Program-made: the position numbers and the translations under genes | The notes under the pieces: generated by a model | Seen by the model: only the letters and a program-made list of their open reading frames with translations | Told to the model about the DNA's origin: nothing | Database searches by the model: none | Shown: positions 1 through 35,537 of the stretch, in pieces | Layout: each line of letters opens with the position of its first letter | Numbering within the stretch: the stretch's first letter is position 1 | From: a virus | DNA length: 56,209 bases | Strand: one strand, 5' to 3' | IMG/VR virus record: IMGVR_UViG_3300017613_002335

Positions 1-121
1 AGGAACCTTTGAAAATAAAGATTTGTTAAAAGGGGTTGGTGCAAGGTGGAAACAAAAACAATGGAGGTTTGATCATGACCCAACAAAAAATATCGCCAAG
101 GCACTCAGAGATAAACATGGA
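1..121. repeat. Terminal overlap copy 1 (identical to 56089-56209)
   Basis: Base-for-base identity over 121 nt. It lies inside an open reading frame. Confidence 0.97.
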
Positions 122-3100
122 ATATTACAACCAGATAGTGAAAAAACACCCGGAGATCGAGGAACAAGTGATGAAAATCTGGATGGACGATCACCCGGGG
201 TGGCCGGATCTGTTAGAAAAAAGGGAACCCACAAAATGGGAACTCTTGATGATCCTGAAAGGTATGTCCAAACAGACACAATAGCTGCGATCAACAAAGG
301 GAAAGAATTCGGAATTCCCCAAAAAGTTTTAAACGAACAAGTCGATGATATTGCAAGGATAGTAAAAGCGCATAATGAAAAGACCGGCATTTTTCTCCTT
401 GCGAATGAGGCTGGTACAGGAAAGTCATTTGTACTTGGTGGTGCTATGCAGGAATTGCAGCGCAATGGTGCAAAAAAGATACTCTATGTGACGATGAATA
501 ATGGATTGGTCAACCAACTCAAGAAAGATCTTTCCGCATTTGATATAAAAAATGTTGAATTCATCACATACGCGAAACTACGCAAAACGACTCCAGCATC
601 GTATGACGCATTGATTTTTGATGAGAGTCAAAATATTAAAAATGTGAAATCCGCTGTCGGGAAAAGAGCAAACCTTTTCATTGAACAGTCAAAATTTTCA
701 ATATTTGCTTCAGCCACACCATTTGAAAACCCAGTTGAGGCCGCATACCTTGAACCGACAAATATTTTTTTTAGTGGTCATTGGGACTGGGCAATTGACC
801 ATGGTGCATACACCAGCCAGTTCAGAAACAACAAGTTTTTGGTTTGGCCTGGTCAGGGTTCTGAACAAAACGCTATTGATGCAAGGAACTGGCTTATAGA
901 TAAAGGTGTGATGACTCAGCGAGACATGCAACTTGATCCTAAAACATCAGAAGTCAAAGTAAGTAAAGTCTCGGTTGATGCTGATTATGTGAGTATGTAT
1001 ACCAGCATAACAAATGCTTTTGATTATGCGATGGATAATCTCCCTGGTAAACAAAAGGGGCAATTGGCAGCTTATGGTGTGAACCTTAGAAAACGGATAC
1101 TTGAGGCAAGTAAACTTGACCAGGCTATCGCCGCTGCTAAATCTGCAATAAAGGAAGGCCGAAACCCAATTATTTTTGTTGAAACTAAAGCTGAACGGCG
1201 GATTGATACGGACAGTATTATTACAGCATATGATATGTGGGAACAAACACCACGGGATTTGCGAGATAAAAAACCTCCATATAGCAAAGTAACATATAAC
1301 GCAGCGAAGGCAATCCAAGATGCAGGGTTTGATGTCCTTACCTTAGAACCAACACAATCAAAAATTGTTGAAGCATTCGGTGAAGAAAATGTAGCTATAT
1401 ACACTGGCGCGGTTAGTGATATCAAGGCTCATAAGAACTTATCACAATGGCGTAAGGGGAACAAAAAGGTTTTGGTTGCAACTATGGCAAAAGGCGGCAC
1501 TGGGCTCAGTCTTCATGACACAGTCGGTGATCATCCTACAACCCAAATAAATTTAAATCTCCCATGGAAAGCAAGCGGTGTTGCCCAGGTTTCCGGTAGA
1601 TCAGCCCGATATGGGGTTGTTGGGAAACCCAAAACCGTTTGGATTTATGCCAAGAATATAGAGTTTGACAACGATTTGGCATCGCGTGTAACCCAACGCA
1701 TGAAAGACATGGGCGCGACGGTTAAGGGAGATATACCAGGGTTAGCGAAGGAGTTTGAGGATGCGTCTGGGGATGGTCGGGGTGAGAAGACAACAATCCG
1801 GGAAGCAATAGGGAAGACAAATACCAAGGTAACATCAGAAGACGGTAGGGCATATATTCTTGAAGATCTTGTTACAGGTATTTACAAAGCAGGGATGTCC
1901 CTTAAAGATTTTTCAGGAAAAGTTGCTGGTAAACTTGGTAGCGCATACAAAAAGGTAAAAGATGCTGTTGTCAAGATGTATCACGCGATCAACGCCCATC
2001 TTGATACATTTACATCTGGTTCTTCTGTTGGGGCTTTGACTTTATATCGAAAAGATGGGACAAGACCTCAATACCAAACCTTGAACCAATCCCCTGAAAA
2101 CCATTCCCCGTGGTATTCCAAAATGCGGGAAACCCTTAGTAAAAAACTCAATAATGCCCCTGCAAAAATGATGAAATCTCAAGTTAATTCATGGGCTAAA
2201 AAGGGCATGTTCAAGAAAGAAGAACTTGAATGGTCTGGATTGAATGAATGGCTTGATTCTAAAAAAGGTAAGGTCACAAAACAAGAAGCTCTTGATTATC
2301 TTGATCAGAATCAGGTTCAGGTTGAGGAAGTTGTTAAGGGTGAAAATTTGAGTGAAAGATCTTTAGCACATGAAGAAATATCACTATACGTTAACGATGA
2401 ACTTGGAGACGGTCTTTATTTTGATGATAGAGGGCCAGAAGGGTATAGTTACATAATTGAAGAAGATAAAGATGGTAACCTTGGAGAAGTAGTCCATGAA
2501 GGTTATGCAGACGAAATTGCCGAAAGCTTAAATTTAGAAATAAGAACCCCGGAAGAACAAACAAAATTCTCAGACTACCAACTCCCCGGAGGCAAAAAAT
2601 ACAAAGAGATTTTACTGACGTTGCCATCTAAATCCGGATTAAAAAAACTCACAGGCTTTAATAGCATATCAGAAGCAAGTAAAAGAGCAGAAAAATTAAA
2701 ACAAGATTACAAATCCCCCCATTGGGACGAACCAAATGTATTAGCCCATGTCCGAATGTCAGAGCGTGAGATTGATGGTAAAAAAGTCCTGCATGTTGAG
2801 GAAATCCAAAGTGACTGGCACCAAAGAGGTAGGGAGAAAGGGTATGCGTCAGGACCATTAGCTGAACTACCAAAAGATACCCGTGTCTATTCAAAAAATA
2901 TGGCGATTAATGCCAAGACAATCCGTAATAACTTCAAAAAACACTATGACACTGTAATTGATGGGTTGAGTAAAGTGTATGACGGATTGTCAGAATCCGA
3001 GCAAAAAAAGATAGAAAAACTTGATGATGCTGTTCAAGATTATTTTGATAAAGATCCAAATACTGAAAATGTAGGGGACCCAATACTATTTGTTGAATGG

Positions 3101-6100
3101 GCAAACAAAGTCAAACCAGGGACATTCTCAGACGAGTTTATAAATCCAGTTAGAAAGACTAAAAAATGGTTTGTTAAAGGCCCAGGCAAATATTCACGGG
3201 GTAGTAGAAGTTTGATAGATTCTGCCGGTGATGTCATTATAGGTAGGGGTAGGAGTGAGAATGAAGCAGTAAAAGATGCTCTTAAAAATGTAAATGACTA
3301 TAACATTTCACAATCTACACCCAACGCCCCATTCAAAAAAACATGGCCCATGCTCGCTTTTAAACGGATGGTCAGATACGCAGCGGAGAACGGGTTTGAT
3401 ACTATTGCTTGGACTCAAGGTACAGAACAGGCTGATCGGTATGATTTGAGTAAGCACATAGAGGAAATTTTATATTTCACCCCGGGACCCGGTAAAGTTA
3501 GAATGGATATTCAAACTATTGACGGGGAACGCATAAACTCTTTCGATGAACTAATGACTTTTGAAGAAGCTGAAGATGTTGTTGGTAAAGAAATTGTTCA
3601 AAAAATGCAGAATAGTGAAGGTGACAAAAAACGCCATGGGGAGAGATCTTTGTCAGGTATCGATCTCAAAGTAGGCGGCGAAGGAATGCTTGCCTTCTAT
3701 GACAAGATCCTACCCGCCGAAGTAAATAAATTCTTCAATAAAAAAGCATGGGGTAAGTCTCGGGTCGGGGAGATTGATGTTTTTACAAATGAGGCATATG
3801 AAGACTCAGATTATGCAGAATTAGATGATTTGACAAGGAAAATTGCTAAAGAAAAAGGGGAGCTTGAAACTCTACATGCTTTAGAAATAACCAAAGAAAT
3901 GAAATCCAAATCCCTGAAAGAAGGCATGCCCTTATTCCAAGGCAAGTCAATTGACAAAACTGGGGAAAATGCTAAACTATCAGGCAAAGAAAAACTAAAA
4001 GCCCTATTTCAATCAAAGAAGGATAAGAAAGATGCCCTGCGTAAAAGTAAACGGGATAAGGTATTATCTAAAACCGGAAGCATTACAAGACAAAGACTTT
4101 ATGCAGCGATTGAAAACATCGGGGATGCCTCAAAAGCAAAAATCACAATCCCTGCCAACCGAAAACAAAAAACCCTTAACAAACTTGGAAAAGCACTCGG
4201 ATTAAAAACAGTATTCTTTAAAACCTCTGATCCAGATACCAATATAACAGGATTTACCTACCCCGGCACAGATCAATTATTTATCAATCTTTCATCCGGT
4301 GTTCCAGAAATTGGTATACTCGGTCATGAAGTAACCCACCAGATAAAGAACAATCACCCTGACCTTTACGATTATCTTGTTAGCGAATTTGAAAATAATA
4401 AAAAAGATTATTTCCTTTACGCTGCTACAGAACAAACCAATCGTGAACTTGCGAACCTGCCCAAATTATCAGAAGCGGATTTGCTTGAGGAATTTATAGG
4501 CGATTTTGCAGGGGATAGCTTTCAACGTCCTGAATTCTGGTCAAAGTTAAATCAAAAATCTCCTTCAATGTCTCAGAAGTTATTCAGCGCAATTAAAAAA
4601 GTTGTGGCTAAAATCAAATCATTTATAACCAGAGCGGAACAGTATGTGGTTGATATTGATAAGGCTCAAGGTGCTATTGCTCATGCTATGAGTGAGGCTA
4701 TTAATCGTGGAAATGGCTTGAAAACTAAGCCGAATAGTGGTAGCAAGTTTTCAGTGACAGATAAAAAGGGGAAGGGCAACATATCCACTGAATCAAACCC
4801 CGTTACGCCCGCTGGTGGAGTGAAATTCAAGAAAATAAAAGACATCCCTATAGAGGACGGCCAAATTCACATTCGTTTTTCAGATAGGATAAGCGATGAT
4901 TTAGAAAGGGGTTGGTCTGGATTTATGGGGGAGAGAGCAGACAATTCCCCTGAGGGTGCAGTTCAACAAGATTTCGGGCAAAGTTTAAAATTTGAAGAAA
5001 TTCACGAAGATTTATATCATTTTTTTGGGGAAGGTGGTGAAAAGCTAGGAGAAGTCAGAAAAGACCCACATACCAAAGAATGGGTTCACGTTGACCATGA
5101 CGGTGTTGCAGGTTTTGATCTAGATGCTGGAAAATATGGTTCAACATTAAGCGATATTATAACTAATTTAGAAAAAGATTCATATGCTTCTTGGTCTTTT
5201 GGTTCATCAAGCGACAGTGGAAAAATATGGAAAGAAGATAACCCAATAACGCTTTATTCTGGTAGTATTGGCGACAATAAAGATATAAACATCATCCTCA
5301 CTGGTGCATCTAAAAAAACAAGAGATAAATTTCTATCCCCTAAACCATCCAGCACACCGGGCGCAGGTGTGCAAAGTAGTACCTCCTCCTTCCAAACAGT
5401 CAAGAACACAGCAACCAAGGCATTTAAAAAATGGAGTAAAGGGCTTAAAGATAATGGCAAATATAAAACAGGAGAACCGGTTTTATTAAAAGCATCTCAT
5501 GGAAGTTTTTCAGCAGGTGGTTTAAACAAGTTTAGTGCAGAAATGACCGGAAGTGGGATATACGGGAGTGCTGAAAATAATAGAATCGGGCATTATTTCA
5601 CAACAGATCGGTATATTGCATCTGAATATGCGACAGGTTACGATGTAGAAAATCTGAATCAAGAAGATGAATATGACGAATTTCTTCATGATAGTATTTT
5701 AGATGGAGAGATTGTTGAAGGTGCTGGGATTATAGATGCGCACATCAGGCTCGACAACCCTTATGTTATTTCTGGTAAAAAGTTTTCTAAATTTGTTGAG
5801 GGAAAAACAAAAGATGTAGATAGCCTTATCTCTGTATTGGATAATGGTGGTCATGATGGTGTCATAGTGGTCTGGTCTGACAAGTCTCCATCAGCTAAGA
5901 TATTATACAAAGAAGCTTACGATAAAAATATAAAAGTGATGCAAAAGGCGTATGAAAAAGCATCTATTAAGCAACAGAAACATTTAGAAATGGTAGATCA
6001 TATTTTCCATCAATGGATGGAAAAAGAAAGAGCAGATGAACTCCCAGATGTCGTGAGGGAAAATTTTAAGATAATAAATAAAAATGACATCTTCAAAGGG

Positions 6101-9100
6101 TTAAGTGTAGACGAGTCTGCTAAAGAATATTTATCAGGAGAAGACAAATGGATAATTGTACGTCCAGATGCAGCGAATAACGCCCAAATAAAATCCATCC
6201 ACAACAAAGGCACATGGGATAAAAACAACCCTGATATCAGGTATCAAACCTCCGAAGATCTTGGACACGATGGTTTTTCAATAGAGGACAATTCAAGCTT
6301 TGTTGAAGATTTCAAGCATAATATTGTTGATGAGCTTAGTCCGGTATCAAAGCTTTACAAAGCAATTAAAAAGGATATCCCAGAAGCCGCAGACTTTAGA
6401 TTAAAGGAACAATTAAGAGTCAGTAAAGCCAAGGGTGATATCGATAAAGCAGAAGAAAAATATTTCAAGCCAATCAAGCAACTTATTGGCCTTGGGAAAC
6501 TAACCGTGGAGTTGGTTGACGAGTTCCTTTATGCCCGTCATGCACCAGAGGCCAATGCCAGGTTAAGGTTGACCAATGCGCGGCATTACCTGAGAAAGCT
6601 GGCAGATGCACAAAGAGGGGACAGCCTCAAAAATAAGATTGCAGAAATGGACGCTGATTTTGAGTTGATGCAATTCCCAACCAATGAGATTCAGGAGAGT
6701 TATTTAGACCTCCTAGAATCTGAATTGGGTACAATTGAAGAAACCTTTGCAGCTGCCAACCAAAAATTAATGAGGGCTGAATCAAAGCTTGATTCTCCAC
6801 TATCTGAAAGCCAGATTGAAAAAGCTGAAAAATCGATAGCATATCATAAAAAGATAGTTGATAAGATCGATAGAGAATTCGATGTCAGAGACAAATGGGA
6901 AACTTTTAGCGCGAAACCTTCAGGCATGACTGACGGCCACATTGACCCAAGAGACAATGAAGCCAAAGAGATTTCTGACAAGTGGAAAGACAACAAAACC
7001 ATGGCTAAAATTGCAAAGCTGTACGACGCAATGAACGCTGAAGGTCTTGAAATATCCCATGATGCAGGCCGACTGTCAGATGAAGAATATAATGCTATCA
7101 AGGGTACTTTCGATTATTATGCTCCACTGTTCAGGGAAGGGTATGAAAAGAAACGCGCTTTTAAAGGTATCGGGGGTGGTGTCACAAATTTAGGTTCTGA
7201 TGTAAATCCCAGGGGCGGGTCCACAAAAAGAGCGGTCCATCTTCTGGCGAATGGTTTTGTGAATCATGAGAAAAAAATCATAAATGCCAAAAAAGCAGAG
7301 GTCGCATCGGCTTTTATCAAGTTCATAAAAATGAACCCGAACAAAGACTTCCTGAGTTTTGAAGAACCCAAAACAGTCGCTACATATGACGGGTCAGGTA
7401 ATATCGAAAGAAGGCCAGCGTTTTTTATTGGTAAGGACGAACCAAAGATAAAAGTTAAAACTGATGGTAAGGTTTATATAGTCTCAGCCAGTCCAAACAA
7501 TATACATGCCATGCGGATACTTGATATTATCCAGGGGAATGATCACAATTCAGGTCCGATTGTAAATGCTTTGGGTAAATTAAACCGAAGACTTGCCGCA
7601 GTAAACACCACATGGAACCCTGAATTTATTTTCTCTAACCTTGCGCGTGACCTTCAAACCGCTGCTTTTAATTTGACCGATACAGAAGTATCGAACATGA
7701 GGAAAACGATATTTAAGAATGTCCCAAAAGCTATGAAGGGTCTTTACAGTTCCATGCAGGGTGACGGCTCCCATGAGTGGGTGAGTATAGTCAAGCGATA
7801 CGAATCATCCGGGGCAAAGATAGGCTGGATCGATTACGGTAAGGATATTGAAACAAAGGCCGCGAAACTTGAAAGCCAGATAGATTTATTCCGGGAAGGA
7901 CATAAGACCAAAAAAGCGGCCGCTAAATTGGTTGAGCTTGTCGAGGACTATAACTCGATTGTTGAAAATGCGGTCAGGCTGTCCACATTTAAGGCCGGTA
8001 TTGATTCTGGTATGTCAGAGGCAAAGGCCGCAATCATGGCAAAGGGTTTGACTGTAAACTTTAACCAGAAAGGTGCTTACGGCCCTGTCATAAATAGTCT
8101 TTACCTTTTTGCAAATGCAGGCATCCAGGGATCAACCCGGATTTTTAAAACGATTAAAAATAACCCTAAGAAAATGGCTAAAATTTTGGGTGGCACCATG
8201 GGGCTGGCAACCATATTGGCCATTGCGAATAGGTCACTGGGCGGCGATGATGAAGACGATATACCATACTATGATCAGGTTGACGATTACCTGAAAGCAA
8301 GAAACATGATCTTTATGATACCCGGGACTAAGGGTAAGTATGCTAAAATACCATTGCCCTGGGGATATAATGTATTCTGGGCGTTAGGTACTGAGATTGG
8401 TGATCTTGCGATAAAAGATGATTATAGCCCACTGGATGGTGCAAGCCGAATGTTAGCAACTGCCCTGGATGCATTTAACCCGTTGCAATCTGCTACTGTC
8501 CTGCAAACTTTATCGCCAACCGTCGGAGATCCGTTTGTCCAGGTTGGTGAAAACAAAACATTTTTTGGTTCTCCATTAATGCCAGAGGGCAACCCGTTTT
8601 CACGAACACCAGAACCAGACTCTGAAAAATACTGGGGATCTGTCAGACCAACATCTAAGATGCTGGCCAAAGCTGCGAATACAATCAGCGGTGGAAATAA
8701 AGTAAAACCCGGCATGGTTGATGTGTCTCCCGAAACGCTTGATTTAGTCTGGGACACTTTTACAGGCGGGGCCGGACGATTCCTATCGGATACAGTTTCC
8801 CTGCCAATCAGGGCGTTGTCCGGGGATCTAAAGACTTCAAAAATACCTGGGCTTAGAAGAGTTTTGGGCTCTCAATCAGAATATAAAGTCACAACTGATT
8901 ATAGATCTAACATAACCTATATATATAGATTGCATGAACAGGCAAAAGAGTATCCGGCAAAGAAAAAGAAATTACGCAAGAATAAAGTGTACACGCTTTA
9001 TACATCTGCGAAAAAATATGAATCGAGAATAAAAAAACTGAACACCCTTTTAAAACGGGCAAAAACCGAAAAAGGAAAAGAGAAAATTAAAAAACGGATA

Positions 9101-9154
9101 GAAAAGTTAAAACGGGCATTCAATAAAAAGGTTATCTTACGGAGGGCTTCTTGA
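1..9154 (+). CDS. Giant virion polyvalent protein, C-terminal part (continuation of 52601..56209 across the circular junction)
   Basis: Same frame as 52601 and open from base 2. ORF-track entry 23..9154 is only the portion after an internal TTG. Motifs: NEAGTGKS (404-427), FDESQNIKN (617-643), ATMAKGGTGLSLHD (1478-1519), EEIQSDWHQRGREKGY (2798-2845), HEVTH (4325-4339), H..Y..E-like block (5470-5890), hydrophobic helices (8090-8420), Lys/Arg-rich tail (8940-9151). Confidence 0.85.
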   Translation, partial: GTFENKDLLKGVGARWKQKQWRFDHDPTKNIAKALRDKHGILQPDSEKTPGDRGTSDENLDGRSPGVAGSVRKKGTHKMGTLDDPERYVQTDTIAAINKGKEFGIPQKVLNEQVDDIARIVKAHNEKTGIFLLANEAGTGKSFVLGGAMQELQRNGAKKILYVTMNNGLVNQLKKDLSAFDIKNVEFITYAKLRKTTPASYDALIFDESQNIKNVKSAVGKRANLFIEQSKFSIFASATPFENPVEAAYLEPTNIFFSGHWDWAIDHGAYTSQFRNNKFLVWPGQGSEQNAIDARNWLIDKGVMTQRDMQLDPKTSEVKVSKVSVDADYVSMYTSITNAFDYAMDNLPGKQKGQLAAYGVNLRKRILEASKLDQAIAAAKSAIKEGRNPIIFVETKAERRIDTDSIITAYDMWEQTPRDLRDKKPPYSKVTYNAAKAIQDAGFDVLTLEPTQSKIVEAFGEENVAIYTGAVSDIKAHKNLSQWRKGNKKVLVATMAKGGTGLSLHDTVGDHPTTQINLNLPWKASGVAQVSGRSARYGVVGKPKTVWIYAKNIEFDNDLASRVTQRMKDMGATVKGDIPGLAKEFEDASGDGRGEKTTIREAIGKTNTKVTSEDGRAYILEDLVTGIYKAGMSLKDFSGKVAGKLGSAYKKVKDAVVKMYHAINAHLDTFTSGSSVGALTLYRKDGTRPQYQTLNQSPENHSPWYSKMRETLSKKLNNAPAKMMKSQVNSWAKKGMFKKEELEWSGLNEWLDSKKGKVTKQEALDYLDQNQVQVEEVVKGENLSERSLAHEEISLYVNDELGDGLYFDDRGPEGYSYIIEEDKDGNLGEVVHEGYADEIAESLNLEIRTPEEQTKFSDYQLPGGKKYKEILLTLPSKSGLKKLTGFNSISEASKRAEKLKQDYKSPHWDEPNVLAHVRMSEREIDGKKVLHVEEIQSDWHQRGREKGYASGPLAELPKDTRVYSKNMAINAKTIRNNFKKHYDTVIDGLSKVYDGLSESEQKKIEKLDDAVQDYFDKDPNTENVGDPILFVEWANKVKPGTFSDEFINPVRKTKKWFVKGPGKYSRGSRSLIDSAGDVIIGRGRSENEAVKDALKNVNDYNISQSTPNAPFKKTWPMLAFKRMVRYAAENGFDTIAWTQGTEQADRYDLSKHIEEILYFTPGPGKVRMDIQTIDGERINSFDELMTFEEAEDVVGKEIVQKMQNSEGDKKRHGERSLSGIDLKVGGEGMLAFYDKILPAEVNKFFNKKAWGKSRVGEIDVFTNEAYEDSDYAELDDLTRKIAKEKGELETLHALEITKEMKSKSLKEGMPLFQGKSIDKTGENAKLSGKEKLKALFQSKKDKKDALRKSKRDKVLSKTGSITRQRLYAAIENIGDASKAKITIPANRKQKTLNKLGKALGLKTVFFKTSDPDTNITGFTYPGTDQLFINLSSGVPEIGILGHEVTHQIKNNHPDLYDYLVSEFENNKKDYFLYAATEQTNRELANLPKLSEADLLEEFIGDFAGDSFQRPEFWSKLNQKSPSMSQKLFSAIKKVVAKIKSFITRAEQYVVDIDKAQGAIAHAMSEAINRGNGLKTKPNSGSKFSVTDKKGKGNISTESNPVTPAGGVKFKKIKDIPIEDGQIHIRFSDRISDDLERGWSGFMGERADNSPEGAVQQDFGQSLKFEEIHEDLYHFFGEGGEKLGEVRKDPHTKEWVHVDHDGVAGFDLDAGKYGSTLSDIITNLEKDSYASWSFGSSSDSGKIWKEDNPITLYSGSIGDNKDINIILTGASKKTRDKFLSPKPSSTPGAGVQSSTSSFQTVKNTATKAFKKWSKGLKDNGKYKTGEPVLLKASHGSFSAGGLNKFSAEMTGSGIYGSAENNRIGHYFTTDRYIASEYATGYDVENLNQEDEYDEFLHDSILDGEIVEGAGIIDAHIRLDNPYVISGKKFSKFVEGKTKDVDSLISVLDNGGHDGVIVVWSDKSPSAKILYKEAYDKNIKVMQKAYEKASIKQQKHLEMVDHIFHQWMEKERADELPDVVRENFKIINKNDIFKGLSVDESAKEYLSGEDKWIIVRPDAANNAQIKSIHNKGTWDKNNPDIRYQTSEDLGHDGFSIEDNSSFVEDFKHNIVDELSPVSKLYKAIKKDIPEAADFRLKEQLRVSKAKGDIDKAEEKYFKPIKQLIGLGKLTVELVDEFLYARHAPEANARLRLTNARHYLRKLADAQRGDSLKNKIAEMDADFELMQFPTNEIQESYLDLLESELGTIEETFAAANQKLMRAESKLDSPLSESQIEKAEKSIAYHKKIVDKIDREFDVRDKWETFSAKPSGMTDGHIDPRDNEAKEISDKWKDNKTMAKIAKLYDAMNAEGLEISHDAGRLSDEEYNAIKGTFDYYAPLFREGYEKKRAFKGIGGGVTNLGSDVNPRGGSTKRAVHLLANGFVNHEKKIINAKKAEVASAFIKFIKMNPNKDFLSFEEPKTVATYDGSGNIERRPAFFIGKDEPKIKVKTDGKVYIVSASPNNIHAMRILDIIQGNDHNSGPIVNALGKLNRRLAAVNTTWNPEFIFSNLARDLQTAAFNLTDTEVSNMRKTIFKNVPKAMKGLYSSMQGDGSHEWVSIVKRYESSGAKIGWIDYGKDIETKAAKLESQIDLFREGHKTKKAAAKLVELVEDYNSIVENAVRLSTFKAGIDSGMSEAKAAIMAKGLTVNFNQKGAYGPVINSLYLFANAGIQGSTRIFKTIKNNPKKMAKILGGTMGLATILAIANRSLGGDDEDDIPYYDQVDDYLKARNMIFMIPGTKGKYAKIPLPWGYNVFWALGTEIGDLAIKDDYSPLDGASRMLATALDAFNPLQSATVLQTLSPTVGDPFVQVGENKTFFGSPLMPEGNPFSRTPEPDSEKYWGSVRPTSKMLAKAANTISGGNKVKPGMVDVSPETLDLVWDTFTGGAGRFLSDTVSLPIRALSGDLKTSKIPGLRRVLGSQSEYKVTTDYRSNITYIYRLHEQAKEYPAKKKKLRKNKVYTLYTSAKKYESRIKKLNTLLKRAKTEKGKEKIKKRIEKLKRAFNKKVILRRAS

Positions 9155-12745: not shown

Positions 12746-13054
12746 ATGACTGAAAAACTGATACTGGAAAAACTCGATCAGATGGAAAAGAAGGTTGATA
12801 AAATCGAAACAGCGGTTGGACTCATTGCGGTTCAAACTGAGAGGATAAATAATATCTCAGGACAAGTAAATAGCTTGTGGTCTAAGTATGACGAGGCTTT
12901 CAGCCCGGAAGGAATTCTTAATCAGGTTAAAAATTTCCAGGCATCTTGCCCCCGCGATCAAATCAAAAATGATCTGTCGAAACAATGGAAAGTTCTATTG
13001 CTGTTGTCAACGGTTGTTACCGGATGCCTGCTTAAAGCCTTTGGGGTGTTATGA
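12746..13054 (+). CDS. Lysis-associated membrane protein (holin-like, C-terminal TM anchor)
   Basis: 102 aa: coiled-coil N-terminus and a single C-terminal hydrophobic helix (WKVLLLLSTVVTGCLLKAFGVL). ATGA overlap with the endolysin start. Confidence 0.45.
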   Translation: MTEKLILEKLDQMEKKVDKIETAVGLIAVQTERINNISGQVNSLWSKYDEAFSPEGILNQVKNFQASCPRDQIKNDLSKQWKVLLLLSTVVTGCLLKAFGVL

Positions 13055-13416
13055 TCAATTTTAAAGAAGATGAATTCTATTGTCCATGCGGTGAATGTGA
13101 CCTTGATTTTGAGGACATGGACGAAGATATTGTTTTGGATCTTGACCGGGCCAGGGGGTACGCGGAAGTTCCTTTTAAATTGAATTCAACCATCCGATGC
13201 ATGGCACACAACCTCAAACCAGAAGTTGGTGGCTCAAAAACCTCAAGTCATCCCAAAGGCCTGGCTGCAGATATAGAGTGTAAAACTTCTTATGCCAGGT
13301 ACAAGATTATTTATGGACTCAGAAAAGCCGGGTTTAATCGAATTGGAATAGGGAAGAATTTTGTCCATGCGGATAAGGATCCAGATAAACCAAAAGAATT
13401 AATGTGGGTATATTAA
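13051..13416 (+). CDS. Endolysin, peptidase M15 (LAS-type zinc D,D- / L-Ala-D-Glu peptidase)
   Basis: SSHPKGLAADI (13244-13276) and FVHAD match the SxHxxGxAxD ... H.D zinc-ligand pattern of the M15 family. 121 aa. Confidence 0.8.
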   Translation: MINFKEDEFYCPCGECDLDFEDMDEDIVLDLDRARGYAEVPFKLNSTIRCMAHNLKPEVGGSKTSSHPKGLAADIECKTSYARYKIIYGLRKAGFNRIGIGKNFVHADKDPDKPKELMWVY

Positions 13417-14107: not shown

Positions 14108-14159
14108 TGGTCGGGGCGGCAGGATTTGAACCTGCGACATCTTGCTCCCAAAGCAAGCG
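14108..14159 (-). other. 3' portion of a tRNA-Pro(UGG) gene (anticodon stem to CCA, no D-arm): attP-type remnant
   Basis: The reverse complement reads CTTGC-TTTGGGA-GCAAG-ATGTC-GCAGG-TTCAAAT-CCTGC-CGCCCCG-A-CCA. The sequence 5' of the anticodon stem has no D-arm or acceptor strand. Confidence 0.75.
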
Positions 14160-14262
14160 GTATAGTTTTGAAAGCCCACAACAGCCTATAATACAGGAGG
14201 TTGTTTTCTACTGAATACTATATAGTATCTCAATTATACCCAAAAGTTCTCAAATAAGTGTC

Positions 14263-14720
14263 TCAAATTTTACCACCGAATTTTTTATATAATTTATCAA
14301 GCGCAGTTACTTCTGAACTAGGTGTCGAATGTAAATATATCTCTGTTGTCTGCAATGCTTTATGACCGAGCAAACCGCCTATGGATTTTTTTGATATCTT
14401 TTCTGCATCTGCCAGATATGTTGCAACAAAATGACGGATATTATGGAATCCAAAAGCAGGATTTATTTTTGCTCTCTTACAAAGTCCTTTCATTAATTTA
14501 GGACGGTGCTTAAATCTATTGTTAGTTTTTGTATTAAAATACACATACTTTTCGTTTTTCCTATTATTCCATCGCGCTTTCAATAATCTATACAATCCTT
14601 CATTCATATGGCAAGTAATCGGTTCATACGCACCGGAACTCCTTTTTCTGGTCCACCTTGTAACTGTTTTTTTTGTAAAATTAACGTCCTGCCATTTCAA
14701 TCTTAATATTTCTGGTAGCA
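14263..14720 (-). pseudogene. Truncated second tyrosine integrase (C-terminal catalytic half only)
   Basis: The C-terminal ~150 aa of ORF 14263..14952 align with the full integrase (LRLKWQDVNF / LRLTWDDVNF; HRPKLMKGLCKRA / HRPKFMKGLCKRA; FGFHNIRH / FGFHTLRH; LLGH..LQTTEIYLH / MLGH..QKTTEIYLH). The segment carrying catalytic Arg-I and the whole N-terminal domain are missing. The upstream part of the ORF is read-through over a tRNA fragment. Confidence 0.75.
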
Positions 14721-14732
14721 CTTTTTGGCGGC
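14713..14732. repeat. 20-bp direct repeat TGGTAGCACTTTTTGGCGGC, copy 1
   Basis: Identical to 14923-14942. It sits exactly at the truncation point of the integrase remnant. Confidence 0.9.
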
Positions 14733-14829
14733 GGCTTTTATGGTAAATGTGCAAAAAACAGGGCACCGGGTAGAATGAACACCCCATATAAAGCCTATAT
14801 ACAAGGCTATTCAAAACCCGACCGTAAGT

Positions 14830-14874
14830 CTGGGGGACAAGTGGTCGCAAGTTCAAATCTTGCCGTCCCGACCA
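14830..14874 (+). other. 3' portion of a tRNA-Pro(GGG) gene: probable attP core of the intact integrase
   Basis: CTGGGGG-ACAAG-TGGTC-GCAAG-TTCAAAT-CTTGC-CGTCCCG-A-CCA. There is no complementary 5' anticodon-stem strand, D-arm or acceptor 5' strand upstream. It lies 17 nt from the integrase stop. Confidence 0.7.
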
Positions 14875-14890
14875 TTTAATACCAAGGGTT

Positions 14891-15970
14891 TCAGCGTTTC
14901 GTTGGAATCCTTTTTTTGTCTTTGGTAGCACTTTTTGGCGGCACCTTTTCATTTTTTTGTGTAAATTTTCCCGAAATTGAGTCTACTGCAACCGTGTCAG
15001 CATCCTTTAATTCATGTAAATAAATTTCTGTTGTTTTCTGGTCGGCATGGCCCAACATATTCTGAATTGTCTTATATGATATTTTGGGGTTATCATTTAA
15101 TAAAGAGGCCATTAAATGCCTGAGTGTATGGAAACCAAAATGTGGGATAATTCCAGCTCGTTTACATAAACCTTTCATGAATTTTGGTCTGTGCTGATAT
15201 CGATCATCATATCTCTTATTATAAAAAACCCAAATATCTTGTTCTCGGTGTTCCCATCTTTTCCACAATATATCATATAACTCATCATTAATTTTTACAG
15301 GCACTTCTTTCCAGGATCCGTCTTTGGTTTTTCTAGTTGTCTTTGTTAGGATCCTTTTATCAAAATTCACATCATCCCAGGTCAGTCTTAAAACCTCATC
15401 AATTCTTGCCAGAGTGTTTAATAGGACAAGCAACAAATCCCTTTCATCTGTTTTCGGGTCTGCTGCCAGCACCAGTTTAATTACATCTGATTCCTGGGGG
15501 ATAACTTTCTTTTTTGGTGTGTGTGGCATCTTCTCTATTTTCTTTATTGGGTTACGGTCAATAACTTCCAAAATATCTTTTGCATATGTAAAAAATGCTG
15601 ATAAGTCCCTTCTGTGAACATTATAATTATTATTGCTGTGCCGTGTTTCAAGATACGCCTTTATCGTTGGTGTTGTCAGTTCATCTATCTGGAAATCATT
15701 TTCCAAAAAGATAAAAAATTGCTGGTAGACATACTTTTTATATTTATATACTGCTTTAACAAATCTTCTTTCTGCATGATCGAGATATTTATTAACCGCC
15801 TCCGAATAAGCCATGCCTGTTTGGATCGGTGTTTTTACCTGTTTTCTTCTTTTTGACCTTGCTACCTCTGCGCTTCGCCGGTCTTTGTAGCCCCGACCGT
15901 AATATCCCTGACCCTGATACTGGAAACGATAACACCAATGTTTTCGGGTCTTGTCCTTCCATAATCCCAT
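14891..15970 (-). CDS. int: Tyrosine recombinase / phage integrase
   Basis: 359 aa. Catalytic pattern R (LARIDEV) ... HTLRH ... GH..QKTTEIYLH. AGGAGG 10 nt upstream of ATG 15970, with an in-frame TAA just upstream. Confidence 0.9.
   Translation of the reverse strand: MGLWKDKTRKHWCYRFQYQGQGYYGRGYKDRRSAEVARSKRRKQVKTPIQTGMAYSEAVNKYLDHAERRFVKAVYKYKKYVYQQFFIFLENDFQIDELTTPTIKAYLETRHSNNNYNVHRRDLSAFFTYAKDILEVIDRNPIKKIEKMPHTPKKKVIPQESDVIKLVLAADPKTDERDLLLVLLNTLARIDEVLRLTWDDVNFDKRILTKTTRKTKDGSWKEVPVKINDELYDILWKRWEHREQDIWVFYNKRYDDRYQHRPKFMKGLCKRAGIIPHFGFHTLRHLMASLLNDNPKISYKTIQNMLGHADQKTTEIYLHELKDADTVAVDSISGKFTQKNEKVPPKSATKDKKRIPTKR
14923..14942. repeat. 20-bp direct repeat TGGTAGCACTTTTTGGCGGC, copy 2
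   Basis: Identical to 14713-14732, 210 bp away. It lies inside the 3' end of the intact integrase gene. Confidence 0.9.
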
Positions 15971-16124
15971 ATATTATTTCCCTCCTGAATCGTAAGACTC
16001 CTAATCCTGCTGGATGAAAGCCATATAGCTTTCTTTGATGTTTGTACACTGTTTTTACGGAAATTCGCAACAGTGAAGAAACATCTTCGGGGGTTAATAA
16101 TTTATTTGGTCTGGGTCCGGTCAA
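15792..16124 (-). CDS. xis: Excisionase-like HTH protein (MerR/AlpA-type); 3' end uncertain
   Basis: The N-terminal 60 aa (LLTPEDVSSLLRISVKTVYKHQRKLYGFHPAGLGVLRFRREIIYGIMEG) fit the excisionase HTH pattern. The frame stays open 179 nt into int, so the annotated C-terminal tail may not be functional. Confidence 0.55.
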   Translation of the reverse strand: MTGPRPNKLLTPEDVSSLLRISVKTVYKHQRKLYGFHPAGLGVLRFRREIIYGIMEGQDPKTLVLSFPVSGSGILRSGLQRPAKRRGSKVKKKKTGKNTDPNRHGLFGGG

Positions 16125-16174: not shown

Positions 16175-16426
16175 TCACGAGATTAGGTACCCACAGCAAG
16201 TTTCTGTTCCTGGGTCCACCTCTGTATATCCAGCATCAAAAACTCGGAAGGCATTAATATTTTTCCCCACTTCTTCCTTATATTTCTTATCACTCAAGCC
16301 AAGGACAATTATTGTTATGGAGGGGTTAGTGACCCGACATCCGATAGCAGCGTGTACCGCTTGAGCGACAAGCTTGCCAATACTCATTTTTAAATTTTTC
16401 CGGTATAATACTCTTAATTTTGTCAT
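16175..16426 (-). CDS. Compact PTH2-family peptidyl-tRNA hydrolase-like protein (83 aa)
   Basis: KLRVLYRKNLKMSIGKLVAQAVHAAIG and FRVFDAGYTEVDPGTETCCGY parallel the PTH2 blocks (VVR.DLKMGKGK.AAQ..HAA and DAGRTQI.PGS.TVL). ATGA-coupled to the upstream gene. Confidence 0.65.
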   Translation of the reverse strand: MTKLRVLYRKNLKMSIGKLVAQAVHAAIGCRVTNPSITIIVLGLSDKKYKEEVGKNINAFRVFDAGYTEVDPGTETCCGYLIS

Positions 16427-16869
16427 GAATTCAATTTAGCCCTTATTGTTTCGAATAATGAATAAGCACATCTCGTCATGTCAGAATAATGCTCTGCTTT
16501 CATTTCTTCCTGCATCACATCGCGCTTATGGGGCCGCTGAAAATGCCCAAGTTCATGACTGAACATTGAGAGGATATCAATAGTATCGGCTGTTTTAAAA
16601 TCAATCCAGATATGCAACTCATCCTTCCCAGACACAAACCCCCATAAGCCAGCTTGCTTAATATTATTTATGACCTCTTTTTGAGACATTTCAATTTCAT
16701 TTCCCTTACCATCGAACCCCCCAAATCCACCATTATCTTCAAAATCACTACCCCAATATGCCTCCCACACACTTTCTGCCGAATCATATAAAACAACATC
16801 ATATATTTTTGGTATTTTTGTTAAATTGCTTGAATAATTGTCGTTAAAGCTTACCCCAATCCTTTCCAT
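16423..16869 (-). CDS. Putative zinc metallopeptidase (HExxH)
   Basis: SHELGHFQRPH near the C-terminus. Likely start is ATG 16869 with GGGGAG upstream (ORF track starts at 16926). Its stop overlaps the PTH2-like start. Confidence 0.5.
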   Translation of the reverse strand: MERIGVSFNDNYSSNLTKIPKIYDVVLYDSAESVWEAYWGSDFEDNGGFGGFDGKGNEIEMSQKEVINNIKQAGLWGFVSGKDELHIWIDFKTADTIDILSMFSHELGHFQRPHKRDVMQEEMKAEHYSDMTRCAYSLFETIRAKLNS

Positions 16870-16935
16870 TTTTAACTCCCCTATCCTGTGGAAACCTGAT
16901 GTTCCCGAAATACGTTTCGGGAACATGGCGCATCA

Positions 16936-18092: not shown

Positions 18093-18734
18093 TCACGCAA
18101 AAAGCCCTAATTGTTCTTCTTCAACCTTTTGGTTTTTCATTGCTGTTTTGAATATATATTCGCCGACTTCTGGATTAACCATATTTCTTAAAAGCTTTCG
18201 TTTGTCTGGCACATCAAACGAAGAAATATCATATCCAAAAATTACATTTTTAGCTCCGTGGATCTGATTATGAGCAACTCCACGACCTTTAAATTTTTTG
18301 GGTGGTGTATAAAAATTAGCCCAAAATTGATGTCTATCCAATTTGAAAGAAGGTTCAACAATTGGGTCATAATATGGGATTACGTTTTCCACTGTCCATA
18401 TTTGTTTCTTTGCATAATGCTTCAGAAGAGTTATCTCTTCCCAAAGCCTTATATCTGGATATACAGCTGGATATTGACCTTGAATCGCTGCCATTCGCCT
18501 AATGTCGCTATGGCTTGGACATGGTGGACTTGCCCAGATATAATCAAATTCTTTGTAATGTTCTAAAAGATATTGATGAGCATCACCAACTATCAACTTA
18601 TCATTAGGGTAATAGTGGTGGTATACTTCAGCAATTTTTGGATCGAACTCAACAGCAGTCACCTGGACATTATCCCAAAGCTTTCGATTACCCCCGATCC
18701 CAGCATATAGATTTAAGACTTTTATCTGTTCCAC
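18093..18734 (-). CDS. Compact DNA cytosine-C5 methyltransferase-like protein (orphan)
   Basis: Motif I LYAGIGG, motif IV SPPCPSHS, motif VI TVENV, motif X-like LLRNMVNPEV. GTG start with GAGGGGAG upstream. Only 213 aa. No nuclease partner adjacent. Confidence 0.7.
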   Translation of the reverse strand: MEQIKVLNLYAGIGGNRKLWDNVQVTAVEFDPKIAEVYHHYYPNDKLIVGDAHQYLLEHYKEFDYIWASPPCPSHSDIRRMAAIQGQYPAVYPDIRLWEEITLLKHYAKKQIWTVENVIPYYDPIVEPSFKLDRHQFWANFYTPPKKFKGRGVAHNQIHGAKNVIFGYDISSFDVPDKRKLLRNMVNPEVGEYIFKTAMKNQKVEEEQLGLFA

Positions 18735-33658: not shown

Positions 33659-34260
33659 TGGCTAAACGGAAATTCATCGACTGGGATTCTGTTGAACCGT
33701 TATATCGGTTAGGAAAACTTTCTAATTGTGAAATCTGCAGGCAATATGCTGCAGATCACGAACATTCCCAAACCTGGAAAACTACTGTAACTGAAGCTGC
33801 AATTCGTTTAAGAGCAAAAGCAAAAGGGTGGGAAAGAAATCTTGCCGACAGGGTCAGGACTAAAGTCAAAGAAAATTTAGTTCGAACTCCGCTTCGAGAC
33901 TCGAATCAAGAAAAACAACTTTCTGATCAAGAGATCATTGACAAAGCTGCGGAGATTGCAGCTGATGTTGTTTTACGTCACAGGGAAGAAATCAAAGCCC
34001 TTCTTAATATTGAAAATGCATTATTGGAAGAACTATCAAATGGTCCTAAAAAACTCTATCTATCGACGTTCCAGGGGGAAATTCTTGAAAAAGAAGTCAG
34101 TTTGACGGTTAAAGAGAAGTCCGCGACTTTAAAGGATTTAGCTGCGGTCCGGGCGCAAAGAGTCACTCTTGAACGGCAGGCGTATAATCTCAATGATAAT
34201 TCTAATCCGGATGAAGACCTCGAGGGCGTTGTTATTGAGTTTGTGGGGGTTAAGCCATGA
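33652..34260 (+). CDS. terS: Terminase small subunit
   Basis: Located immediately upstream of terL and coupled to it. N-terminal HTH-like segment (LGKLSNCEICRQY). 202 aa. Confidence 0.65.
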   Translation: MLMAKRKFIDWDSVEPLYRLGKLSNCEICRQYAADHEHSQTWKTTVTEAAIRLRAKAKGWERNLADRVRTKVKENLVRTPLRDSNQEKQLSDQEIIDKAAEIAADVVLRHREEIKALLNIENALLEELSNGPKKLYLSTFQGEILEKEVSLTVKEKSATLKDLAAVRAQRVTLERQAYNLNDNSNPDEDLEGVVIEFVGVKP

Positions 34261-35537
34261 AATCCAAGGCCCAATTTCCTGAAAAATTAAAGTTCTTATT
34301 TAAGCCGCATAGGTACAAAGTTGCTTATGGTGGCCGAGGAAGTGGAAAGTCCTGGGGTTTTGCCCGGGCATTGTTGATTTTGGGAATAAAGAAAAAATTG
34401 AGAATACTCTGCGCTCGAGAAGTCCAGGATTCAATTAAGCAATCAGTACATAAACTCCTGGGTGATCAGATTGAGTTATTAAAAATCAGTAGCCGGTATC
34501 AAGTTTTAGACACTATAATTCGTGGAAAGAACGGCACTGAGATCATGTTTACTGGGTTGTCTACATTGACAGTTGATTCAATAAAATCTTTCGAGGGTGT
34601 TGATATTGTTTGGGTCGAAGAGGGGCAGGTAATCACTGAAAGATCCTGGAAAATTCTTGTACCGACTATTCGAAAAGATGATTCTGAAATTTGGGTATCA
34701 TATAACCCAGAGCTTGAGACTGATCCCACGCATGACCGATTTGTCACCAAACAGCCGCAGGATGCGGTGGTTGTTAAGATGAACTACAGCGACAATCCAT
34801 TTTTTAACACCGTAATGGAAAAAGAGCGTATTGAGTGCCAAAAGAACGATCCGAAAGGATATCCAAATATATGGGAAGGTGAATGTCGGCCAGCGGTCGA
34901 GGGCGCTATATATCATGATGGAATCCAAAAAGCCGAAAATAATAAACGTGTGTGCAATGTCCCATATGACCCATATTTAAAGGTTCATGTTGTGTTTGAT
35001 CTCGGATGGAACGATTCAATGGGGATTTCGTTAGTCCAACGGCATTATTCAGAAATCAGAATCATCGAATATATAGAAGACTCTCACAAAACGCTTGATC
35101 ACTATTCAGCCGAGTTAAAAAAGAAAAATCTCAACTGGGGCAAGGTTTGGTTGCCACATGATGGATATTCCGGAGATTATAAAACTGGGAAAACAACAGC
35201 GCAAATCATGAAAAAGTTTGGGTGGCGTGTCCCAAAAAAGGAAGAGATTGTCAAGGTCGGAGTTGAGGAGGGTATCAAAATTACGAGAATGGCATTTGGC
35301 AGGATGGTGTTTGATAAGGTTAAAGCGGCCAGGCTGGTTGAGTGTATTAAAAGATACCGAAGGCATATTAATAAACAGACTGGTGAACCTGGGGCCCCGG
35401 TGCATGATGAGTTCTCTCATGGTGCAGACAACCTGAGATATATTTCCGTAAATGCAGACAAAATGACAAATGAAGACCAAAGACCCGTTGAGATAATACA
35501 AGGTTATGGACCGATGGACGCGGCGATTAATTATTAG
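34257..35537 (+). CDS. terL: Terminase large subunit (PBSX/Terminase_3-like)
   Basis: Walker A YGGRGSGKSW, Walker B IVWVEEGQ. 426 aa. Confidence 0.85.
   Translation: MKSKAQFPEKLKFLFKPHRYKVAYGGRGSGKSWGFARALLILGIKKKLRILCAREVQDSIKQSVHKLLGDQIELLKISSRYQVLDTIIRGKNGTEIMFTGLSTLTVDSIKSFEGVDIVWVEEGQVITERSWKILVPTIRKDDSEIWVSYNPELETDPTHDRFVTKQPQDAVVVKMNYSDNPFFNTVMEKERIECQKNDPKGYPNIWEGECRPAVEGAIYHDGIQKAENNKRVCNVPYDPYLKVHVVFDLGWNDSMGISLVQRHYSEIRIIEYIEDSHKTLDHYSAELKKKNLNWGKVWLPHDGYSGDYKTGKTTAQIMKKFGWRVPKKEEIVKVGVEEGIKITRMAFGRMVFDKVKAARLVECIKRYRRHINKQTGEPGAPVHDEFSHGADNLRYISVNADKMTNEDQRPVEIIQGYGPMDAAINY

Follow-up and report, generated by a model that had tools for sequence, protein, structure and literature searches.

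A short phage PTH2 protein, predicted to hydrolyze peptidyl-tRNA, and its overlapping HExxH gene in a temperate phage genome

The IMG/VR virus record IMGVR_UViG_3300017613_002335, a stretch of DNA of 56,209 nucleotides that was analyzed over its full length (the window), carries two small overlapping genes on the minus strand between positions 16,175 and 16,869. One of them codes for an 83-amino-acid protein related to the archaeal/eukaryotic-type peptidyl-tRNA hydrolases (PTH2, Pth2), and the other, lying upstream, for a 148-amino-acid protein with an HExxH motif. An earlier inspection of the letters alone (the sequence-only reading) had recognized a miniaturized PTH2 coupled to a possible peptidase and suggested a role in counter-defense or as a toxin–antitoxin-like module. 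The motifs that it quoted, RKNLKMSIGKLVAQAVHAA, FDAGYTEVDPGTET, and SHELGH, are all present in the open reading frames (ORFs), and the coordinates, the strand, and the stop/start overlap of the two genes could be read directly in the DNA. The locus comprises the following features:

16175..16426, minus strand: short PTH2-domain gene (83 amino acids); predicted minimal peptidyl-tRNA hydrolase with conserved K18, D64, and T68
16423..16869, minus strand: HExxH gene (148 amino acids); SHELGH at residues 104-109 and invariant E122; predicted small zincin-like metallopeptidase of a phage family
16423..16426, minus strand: ATGA junction, in which the HExxH stop codon TGA overlaps the PTH2 start codon ATG
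16877..16882, minus strand: GGGGAG Shine-Dalgarno sequence, 7 nt 5' of the start codon of the 148-amino-acid protein

At the junction, the PTH2 ATG occupies positions 16426-16424 and the HExxH TGA positions 16425-16423. The nearest Shine-Dalgarno-like sequence of the PTH2 gene, a purine-rich AAGGG, sits 13 nt ahead of the start, and this poor spacing, together with the ATGA overlap, makes translation by termination-reinitiation plausible. A longer reading of the HExxH ORF, 167 amino acids from position 16926, is also open. The start at 16869 was favored because P0034 (~52% identity), the only close homologue of the HExxH protein, starts where the 148-amino-acid reading starts, because GGGGAG is placed at 7 nt, and because the database copy of the protein (P0033) is 148 amino acids long. 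A search for RNA families and repeats between 13.9 and 18 kb revealed none of note inside either gene.

The 83-amino-acid protein is almost certainly a PTH2 homologue. It matched the Pfam profile PF01981 far beyond chance, with 41.5 bits (gathering cut-off 23; E = 1.8e-10) over profile positions 2-96 of 115. When compared with all PDB sequences by phmmer, it retrieved the Pth2 entries Ta0108, S. solfataricus, P. horikoshii, A. fulgidus, M. jannaschii, human Bit1, and 24bt; the sole match outside Pth2, a CheY-like protein, was non-significant (E = 1.4). With a profile of the short PTH2 family as the query, the Pth2 matches improved to E = 1e-12 to 1e-9. The AlphaFold model, built with 24 homologues, reached a mean predicted local distance difference test (pLDDT) score of 90.8 and consists of four strands and two helices in the order strand 1, helix 1, strand 2, helix 2, strand 3, strand 4. 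The top nine Foldseek matches of this model in the PDB were all Pth2 structures (probability 1.00, query TM-score 0.63-0.75). The PDB entry 24bt (chain A, 127 amino acids), a recent "peptidyl-tRNA hydrolase" whose source organism is absent from the tables, gives an end-to-end alignment with the 83-amino-acid protein that surpasses those of the classical archaeal entries, and may represent a viral Pth2.

Gap-free local alignments with the S. solfataricus enzyme (1xty) placed K18 on K18, D64 on D86, and T68 on T90, so the GK, D, and T positions singled out earlier are retained. Mutagenesis by Fromant et al. in 2005 reportedly identified K18, D86, and T90 as the active site of S. solfataricus Pth2. 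Across 24 aligned homologues with 43-63% identity to the window protein, K18, D64, G66, T68, E69, NLKM, and AQAVHA are invariant. In the remoter copies from viral contigs (40-54% identity), the strictly kept residues are the Lys and the Asp, Gly, and Thr of the DxGxT loop; variation is seen in the helix motif and at the position that follows the loop Thr, and some members of the clade have DKGLT or DFGYT in place of DAGYT. Altogether, the PF01981 gathering score, the reduced Pth2 fold, and the Lys/Asp/Thr positions place the protein in the PTH2 superfamily. Profile, fold, and active-site positions thus agree that the ORF encodes a shortened PTH2-type protein, and the recognition of a PTH2 in the sequence-only reading, which had named a PTH2 profile match and a comparison of the model with Pth2 structures as its checks, was borne out by both.

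The archaeal and eukaryotic Pth2 proteins (PF01981; S. solfataricus 1XTY, human PTRH2/Bit1 1Q7S) share with the 83-amino-acid protein the alpha/beta core found by Foldseek, the helix motif (R/K)xDLKMxxGKxxAQxxHA, and the DAGxTxxxxGT loop, with Lys, Asp, and Thr conserved. They differ in size, 116–120 amino acids with four strands and four helices in the canonical form (PMC11202043) versus 83 amino acids with two helices, and in that the short protein is bacteriophage-encoded. Some 30 middle residues had been thought missing. The shortening itself was confirmed, but not its extent or place: ~18 internal residues are absent (~13 after helix 1, corresponding to canonical helix 2, and the rest before strand 3), and so are the C-terminal ~15 residues of canonical Pth2.

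Rather than an isolated truncation, the short form represents a phage clade whose members are ~80-107 amino acids long. The protein database yielded 32 homologues of 80-135 amino acids, nearly all of them within 80-107, and several carry the JGI name "peptidyl-tRNA hydrolase". Seventeen further loci were found in IMG/VR on viral contigs of 11-463 kb, and 30 records among GenBank phages, including Vibrio phage ICP1, Aeromonas phages, Shewanella phage 1/4, and Pseudaeromonas phage KLEP7. The ICP1 homologue is annotated as hypothetical, that of Shewanella phage 1/4 as "peptidyl-tRNA hydrolase", and KLEP7 gp109 as "peptidyl-tRNA hydrolase, Pth2 domain-containing"; the two PHROGs matched by the window protein, phrog_31188 and phrog_1866, both carry no functional annotation. 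A scan of 185,579 representative bacterial and archaeal genomes gave one partial match, in a metagenome-assembled genome of Verrucomicrobiaceae. The short PTH2 clade is essentially viral. Its members keep the four-stranded sheet, the helix with the conserved Lys, and the DAGxT loop; two of the four canonical helices, along with the C-terminal tail, are gone.

The PTH2 genes of Shewanella phage 1/4, KLEP7 (gp109), and ICP1 belong to the same short clade (35-45% identity over 93-98%, ~89-102 amino acids) and resemble the window copy in their early or accessory location. Clade phages of known lifestyle are lytic, have genomes of 115-140 kb, and grow on Vibrio, Aeromonas, and relatives, whereas the window copy resides in an integrase-carrying phage of ~56 kb; it is also the only copy found joined by ATGA to an HExxH gene. 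Phage PTH2 genes, the short ones included, are already in the databases and annotated as such. This is an ordinary accessory gene for which standard annotation pipelines provide a name, and the conserved deletion of two helices is a modestly interesting structural point. Viral PTH2 genes have also been recorded from sequence in jumbo phages, with a proposed role in ribosome rescue (PMC7824862), in Microcystis viruses (PMC12542629), and in a nanohaloarchaeal virus (bioRxiv 10.1101/2025.02.15.638363).

The surroundings of the short PTH2 genes were compared across the clade. In three IMG/VR loci, all on large contigs of uncultured viruses, the gene lies inside a tRNA array (L011, 3807-5417; L014, 2614-9811; L018, 786-6573); in the last of these a tRNA-Arg gene begins directly after the PTH2 stop codon. 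At a fourth locus (L010), a tRNA-Met gene is found ~2.5 kb from the PTH2 gene. In KLEP7 (L031, OM654377.1; 2498-4741), gp109 is located three genes upstream of two genes for CCA-adding enzymes (tRNA nucleotidyltransferases), which suggests a tRNA-maintenance cluster; a Clp protease gene and a PhoH-like gene are also near. A Thg1 gene occurs once among the clade neighbors. The other neighbors form a mixed early and accessory set with RecT, SSB, RusA, NinB, methyltransferases, QueC, PTPS, Tad6, and NADAR. These neighborhoods support a tRNA-directed activity and an early accessory role, and single out no specific defense system. On one 45-kb viral contig (L003, 8120-8719), a homologue of Tad6, the type I Thoeris inhibitor, is encoded ~2 kb downstream of the short PTH2 gene, with an ORF weakly matching Peptidase_M78 between the two.

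The HExxH protein belongs to a family of its own. An exhaustive profile search collected 391 clusters at E <= 0.001, which consist for the most part of standalone proteins with 125-150 amino acids; among 50 diverse members, no variation occurs at H105, E106, H109, E122, or A125. The AlphaFold model (pLDDT 94) combines a beta-sheet with the HExxH helix (residues 96-110) and a long helix (118-147) bearing E121 and E122. E122 follows the second His of HExxH by only 13 residues; the combination of an invariant HExxH and a downstream Glu, which would act as the third zinc ligand of a zincin, was found in all 50 members. The predicted structure has a minimal gluzincin-like layout. It resembles the small zincins (DUF2268; M48, e.g., BepA; SprT-like) in that the HExxH helix comes after a beta-sheet and is followed by a helix with an invariant Glu, and differs in that its family is standalone, phage-specific, ~125-150 amino acids long, and below every curated cut-off.

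Several known peptidase families were considered for this protein, namely DUF2268, M48/BepA, and SprT-like, and all remained sub-threshold in Pfam, PHROGs, NCBIfam, PADLOC, the PDB, and Foldseek. Weak matches to Pfam DUF2268 occurred in 21 of the 50 members, and weak M48, reprolysin, and astacin matches were scattered over the family; for the 148-amino-acid protein, DUF2268 scored 13.9-14.2 bits against a cut-off of 23.6. BepA was the best match among PDB sequences (E = 0.25), with a weak alignment around a strand and the HExxH region. Foldseek found no solved structure in the PDB at E < 0.4 for the model (best E = 0.46) and only two unnamed relatives among the viral models (BFVD). Eleven of the 50 members matched phrog_11676, and Erwinia and Pseudomonas phages encode members that are annotated as hypothetical. 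We regard the HExxH protein as a predicted small metallopeptidase of a separate phage family, in which the conserved residues would bind metal and support catalysis.

Whether the two genes form a unit was examined in 19 other distinct PTH2 loci (5-8 kb flanks) and in six HExxH loci (4 kb flanks) besides P0034, the related HExxH loci having been retrieved with a 10-sequence alignment. In a tblastn comparison of 14 window proteins with 22 loci, the HExxH protein was unmatched in all PTH2 loci, and a scan for the HExxH motif found none in the immediate neighbors of any PTH2 gene. Hidden Markov models used both ways detected no HExxH-family gene in the 19 PTH2 loci and no PTH2 in the six HExxH loci. 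P0034 is flanked by a SLOG-like ORF and an unrelated ORF, with no PTH2 beside it; at this locus (L005, 35-376, on a 964-bp contig), it is the SLOG/DUF2493-like ORF, recognized by eye from GTARGVD, that precedes the HExxH gene. PADLOC matched neither protein to any model; only the nearby C5 methyltransferase was recognized, by its MTase models. Within the window, 14 of the 65 same-strand neighbor pairs share a 4-nt NTGA overlap, the commonest type of junction, and 26 of the 65 overlap in some way, so that the ATGA reflects the general compaction of operons. The juxtaposition appears incidental, a product of tight operon packing and not a two-component system. The functional or toxin–antitoxin-like pair envisaged in the sequence-only reading therefore found no counterpart in 26 other distinct loci (19 PTH2 and seven HExxH), and a reading of the overlap as a specific signal found no support.

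The window is an essentially complete genome of a temperate phage, integrase-carrying, ~56 kb long, and of ~40% GC. Outside the pair, the following features were noted:

14891..15970, minus strand: tyrosine integrase, last gene of the leftward string (Pfam Phage_integrase, 89.5 bits)
15792..16124, minus strand: Xis-like HTH_17 ORF directly 3' of the PTH2 gene (Pfam E = 3.9e-05; 24.2 bits, below the cut-off of 27)
18093..18734, minus strand: C5-cytosine methyltransferase-like ORF of 213 amino acids, covering methylase profile positions 1-84 of 324
13051..13416: Peptidase_M15 endolysin
34257..35537: terminase; the structural genes come next
23..9154, plus strand: polyvalent protein of 3043 amino acids; ResIII helicase-like at the N-terminus, LPD38 domain (142 bits) at the C-terminus

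A tightly packed string of minus-strand genes runs leftward from ~22277 down to the integrase. In the 5' to 3' direction it contains small ORFs, the C5-methyltransferase-like ORF, further small ORFs, the HExxH gene, the PTH2 gene, and the Xis-like ORF. Replication genes oriented rightward, for a DUF2800 nuclease, an Enc34-type single-stranded DNA-binding protein, an SNF2 helicase, and a primase, oppose it. By analogy, the leftward string looks like an operon of the lambda pL type. The integrase-proximal position of the pair is plain, since the Xis-like ORF and the integrase follow on the same strand. As a typical setting for accessory cargo this position did not hold up: the homologues of the short PTH2 lie in tRNA arrays as well as in early or replication modules, and they come from cultured lytic phages and from large uncultured viral contigs.

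Taking these data together, we favor, with a probability of roughly 0.65, the view that the window encodes a genuine short phage PTH2 that recycles tRNA, is expressed early, and is independent of its HExxH neighbor. The 83-amino-acid protein is probably an active peptidyl-tRNA hydrolase. The gene would be transcribed early from the leftward operon in the manner of lambda pL, and ribosomes terminating on the upstream HExxH gene would reinitiate to translate PTH2. The protein would then hydrolyze the ester bond of peptidyl-tRNA or of N-blocked aminoacyl-tRNA and so free tRNA for translation during phage growth. Such an activity might offset the drop-off of peptidyl-tRNA and could perhaps counter host toxins by which aminoacyl-tRNA is blocked. 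In this view, the HExxH neighbor is an independent accessory gene for a predicted gluzincin-like metallopeptidase. According to a reference cited in PMC12542629, phage lambda depends on host Pth activity, and Pth is known to reverse the acetylation of aminoacyl-tRNA by TacT (PMC9241777).

Several points weigh against this view. The 83-amino-acid protein failed the NCBIfam Pth2 equivalogs NF003314 and TIGR00283 (43.8 versus 126 and 37.6 versus 82 bits), the best stretch comprising only the N-terminal ~30 residues; because these cut-offs failed, it should be described as a divergent member of the domain and not as an orthologue-grade Pth2. The model is devoid of two of the four helices and of the C-terminal tail described for canonical Pth2 (PMC11202043), and these parts might be needed for tRNA binding or dimerization; the canonical enzyme is reported to be dimeric. 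Most neighbors of the clade are unrelated to translation. For phage Pth2, the literature search found genomic mentions only and no experimental study. The case for early transcription and for termination-reinitiation comes down to gene order, and the promoter and terminator scans gave counts near the shuffled expectation, which neither back nor oppose a leftward operon. Neither the terminase comparison (only ~51% identity to Pseudomonas H66/F116-like phages) nor the scan of bacterial and archaeal genomes identified the host of the phage.

The loss of two helices and the C-terminal tail, the failed equivalog cut-offs, and the DKGLT and DFGYT variants, which show drift around the loop, could also mean that the short PTH2 is catalytically dead or a repurposed scaffold. 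It might then bind the acceptor ends of tRNA or a host protein, or hydrolyze unblocked aminoacyl-tRNA as a means of host shut-off. We consider this unlikely, since K18, D64, G66, T68, E69, NLKM, and AQAVHA are invariant in the 24 homologues, a pattern like that of an enzyme, and since clade members are associated with tRNA genes. Still less credible is a dedicated module of the HExxH protein and the short PTH2, either toxin–antitoxin-like or a protease and a hydrolase acting on one target. The stop/start overlap, the weak independent ribosome-binding site of the PTH2 gene, and the placement of two small accessory genes in the same operon would fit such a module, but the pair was found nowhere else among the 19 PTH2 and seven HExxH loci, both families are broadly and independently distributed, NTGA overlaps are generic in the window, and neither protein matched a PADLOC model. 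We therefore hold it to be very improbable.

More specific than the favored reading, and in our estimation a minority possibility, is the proposal that the short PTH2 serves counter-defense by undoing host attacks on charged tRNA, for example, by GNAT toxins that N-acetylate aminoacyl-tRNA or by anticodon nucleases whose cleavage leaves peptidyl-tRNA stranded. By analogy, TacT toxicity is reversed by Pth (PMC9241777), and the PTH2 of jumbo phages was proposed to act after tRNA cleavage (PMC7824862). The clade co-locates with tRNA arrays, CCA-adding enzymes, and Thg1, themselves linked to tRNA-targeting defenses; one locus has the anti-Thoeris Tad6 ~2 kb away, and in the window the gene stands in the early accessory block beside a DNA methyltransferase. 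However, known anti-defense genes show no conserved association with the clade, no publication on such a role was found in the literature, and hosts already own an essential Pth1, so that an added benefit needs demonstration. A bolder scenario, to which we likewise give little credence, would make the ~80-amino-acid clade the minimal catalytic core of Pth2 and the smallest known peptidyl-tRNA hydrolase, deployed, often next to phage tRNAs and tRNA-repair enzymes, as a counter-measure to immunity that traps N-blocked or peptidyl-tRNA, with the co-translated zincin as part of a shared early anti-host program.

Were the short clade active, as the favored reading of a tRNA-recycling PTH2 holds, the minimal catalytic core of Pth2 would comprise ~80 residues in four strands and two helices. 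Peptidyl-tRNA recycling would then join phage tRNAs, CCA-adding enzymes, Thg1, and RNA ligases among the tools of tRNA upkeep, with a bearing on the resistance of phages to defenses directed at tRNA and translation. The ICP1 homologue, so far annotated as hypothetical in this model phage, would thereby acquire a function.

Some minor observations concern other parts of the phage genome. The 3043-amino-acid ORF is a "large polyvalent protein", a type believed to be transferred along with phage or conjugative DNA, and may extend beyond the start of the window. The 213-amino-acid methyltransferase-like ORF covers about the N-terminal third of the profiles only and may be truncated or split. ARAGORN detected no intact tRNA gene over the window. 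Two tRNA-like pieces at 14108-14180 (minus strand) and 14810-14874 (plus strand) make up a 65-nt inverted repeat with 75% complementarity. One of them scored 28.1 bits with the Rfam tRNA model, just below the cut-off of 29; the other, which follows the integrase stop codon immediately, is a clean 3' half that ends in CCA, with an att-like 3' fragment of a tRNA at 14851-14874. They flank a C-terminal remnant of an integrase (14263-14750). A 27-nt direct repeat (14713, 14923) is found at the ends of both integrase copies. The inverted tRNA pieces and the integrase remnant look like an att region with the relic of an earlier integrase.

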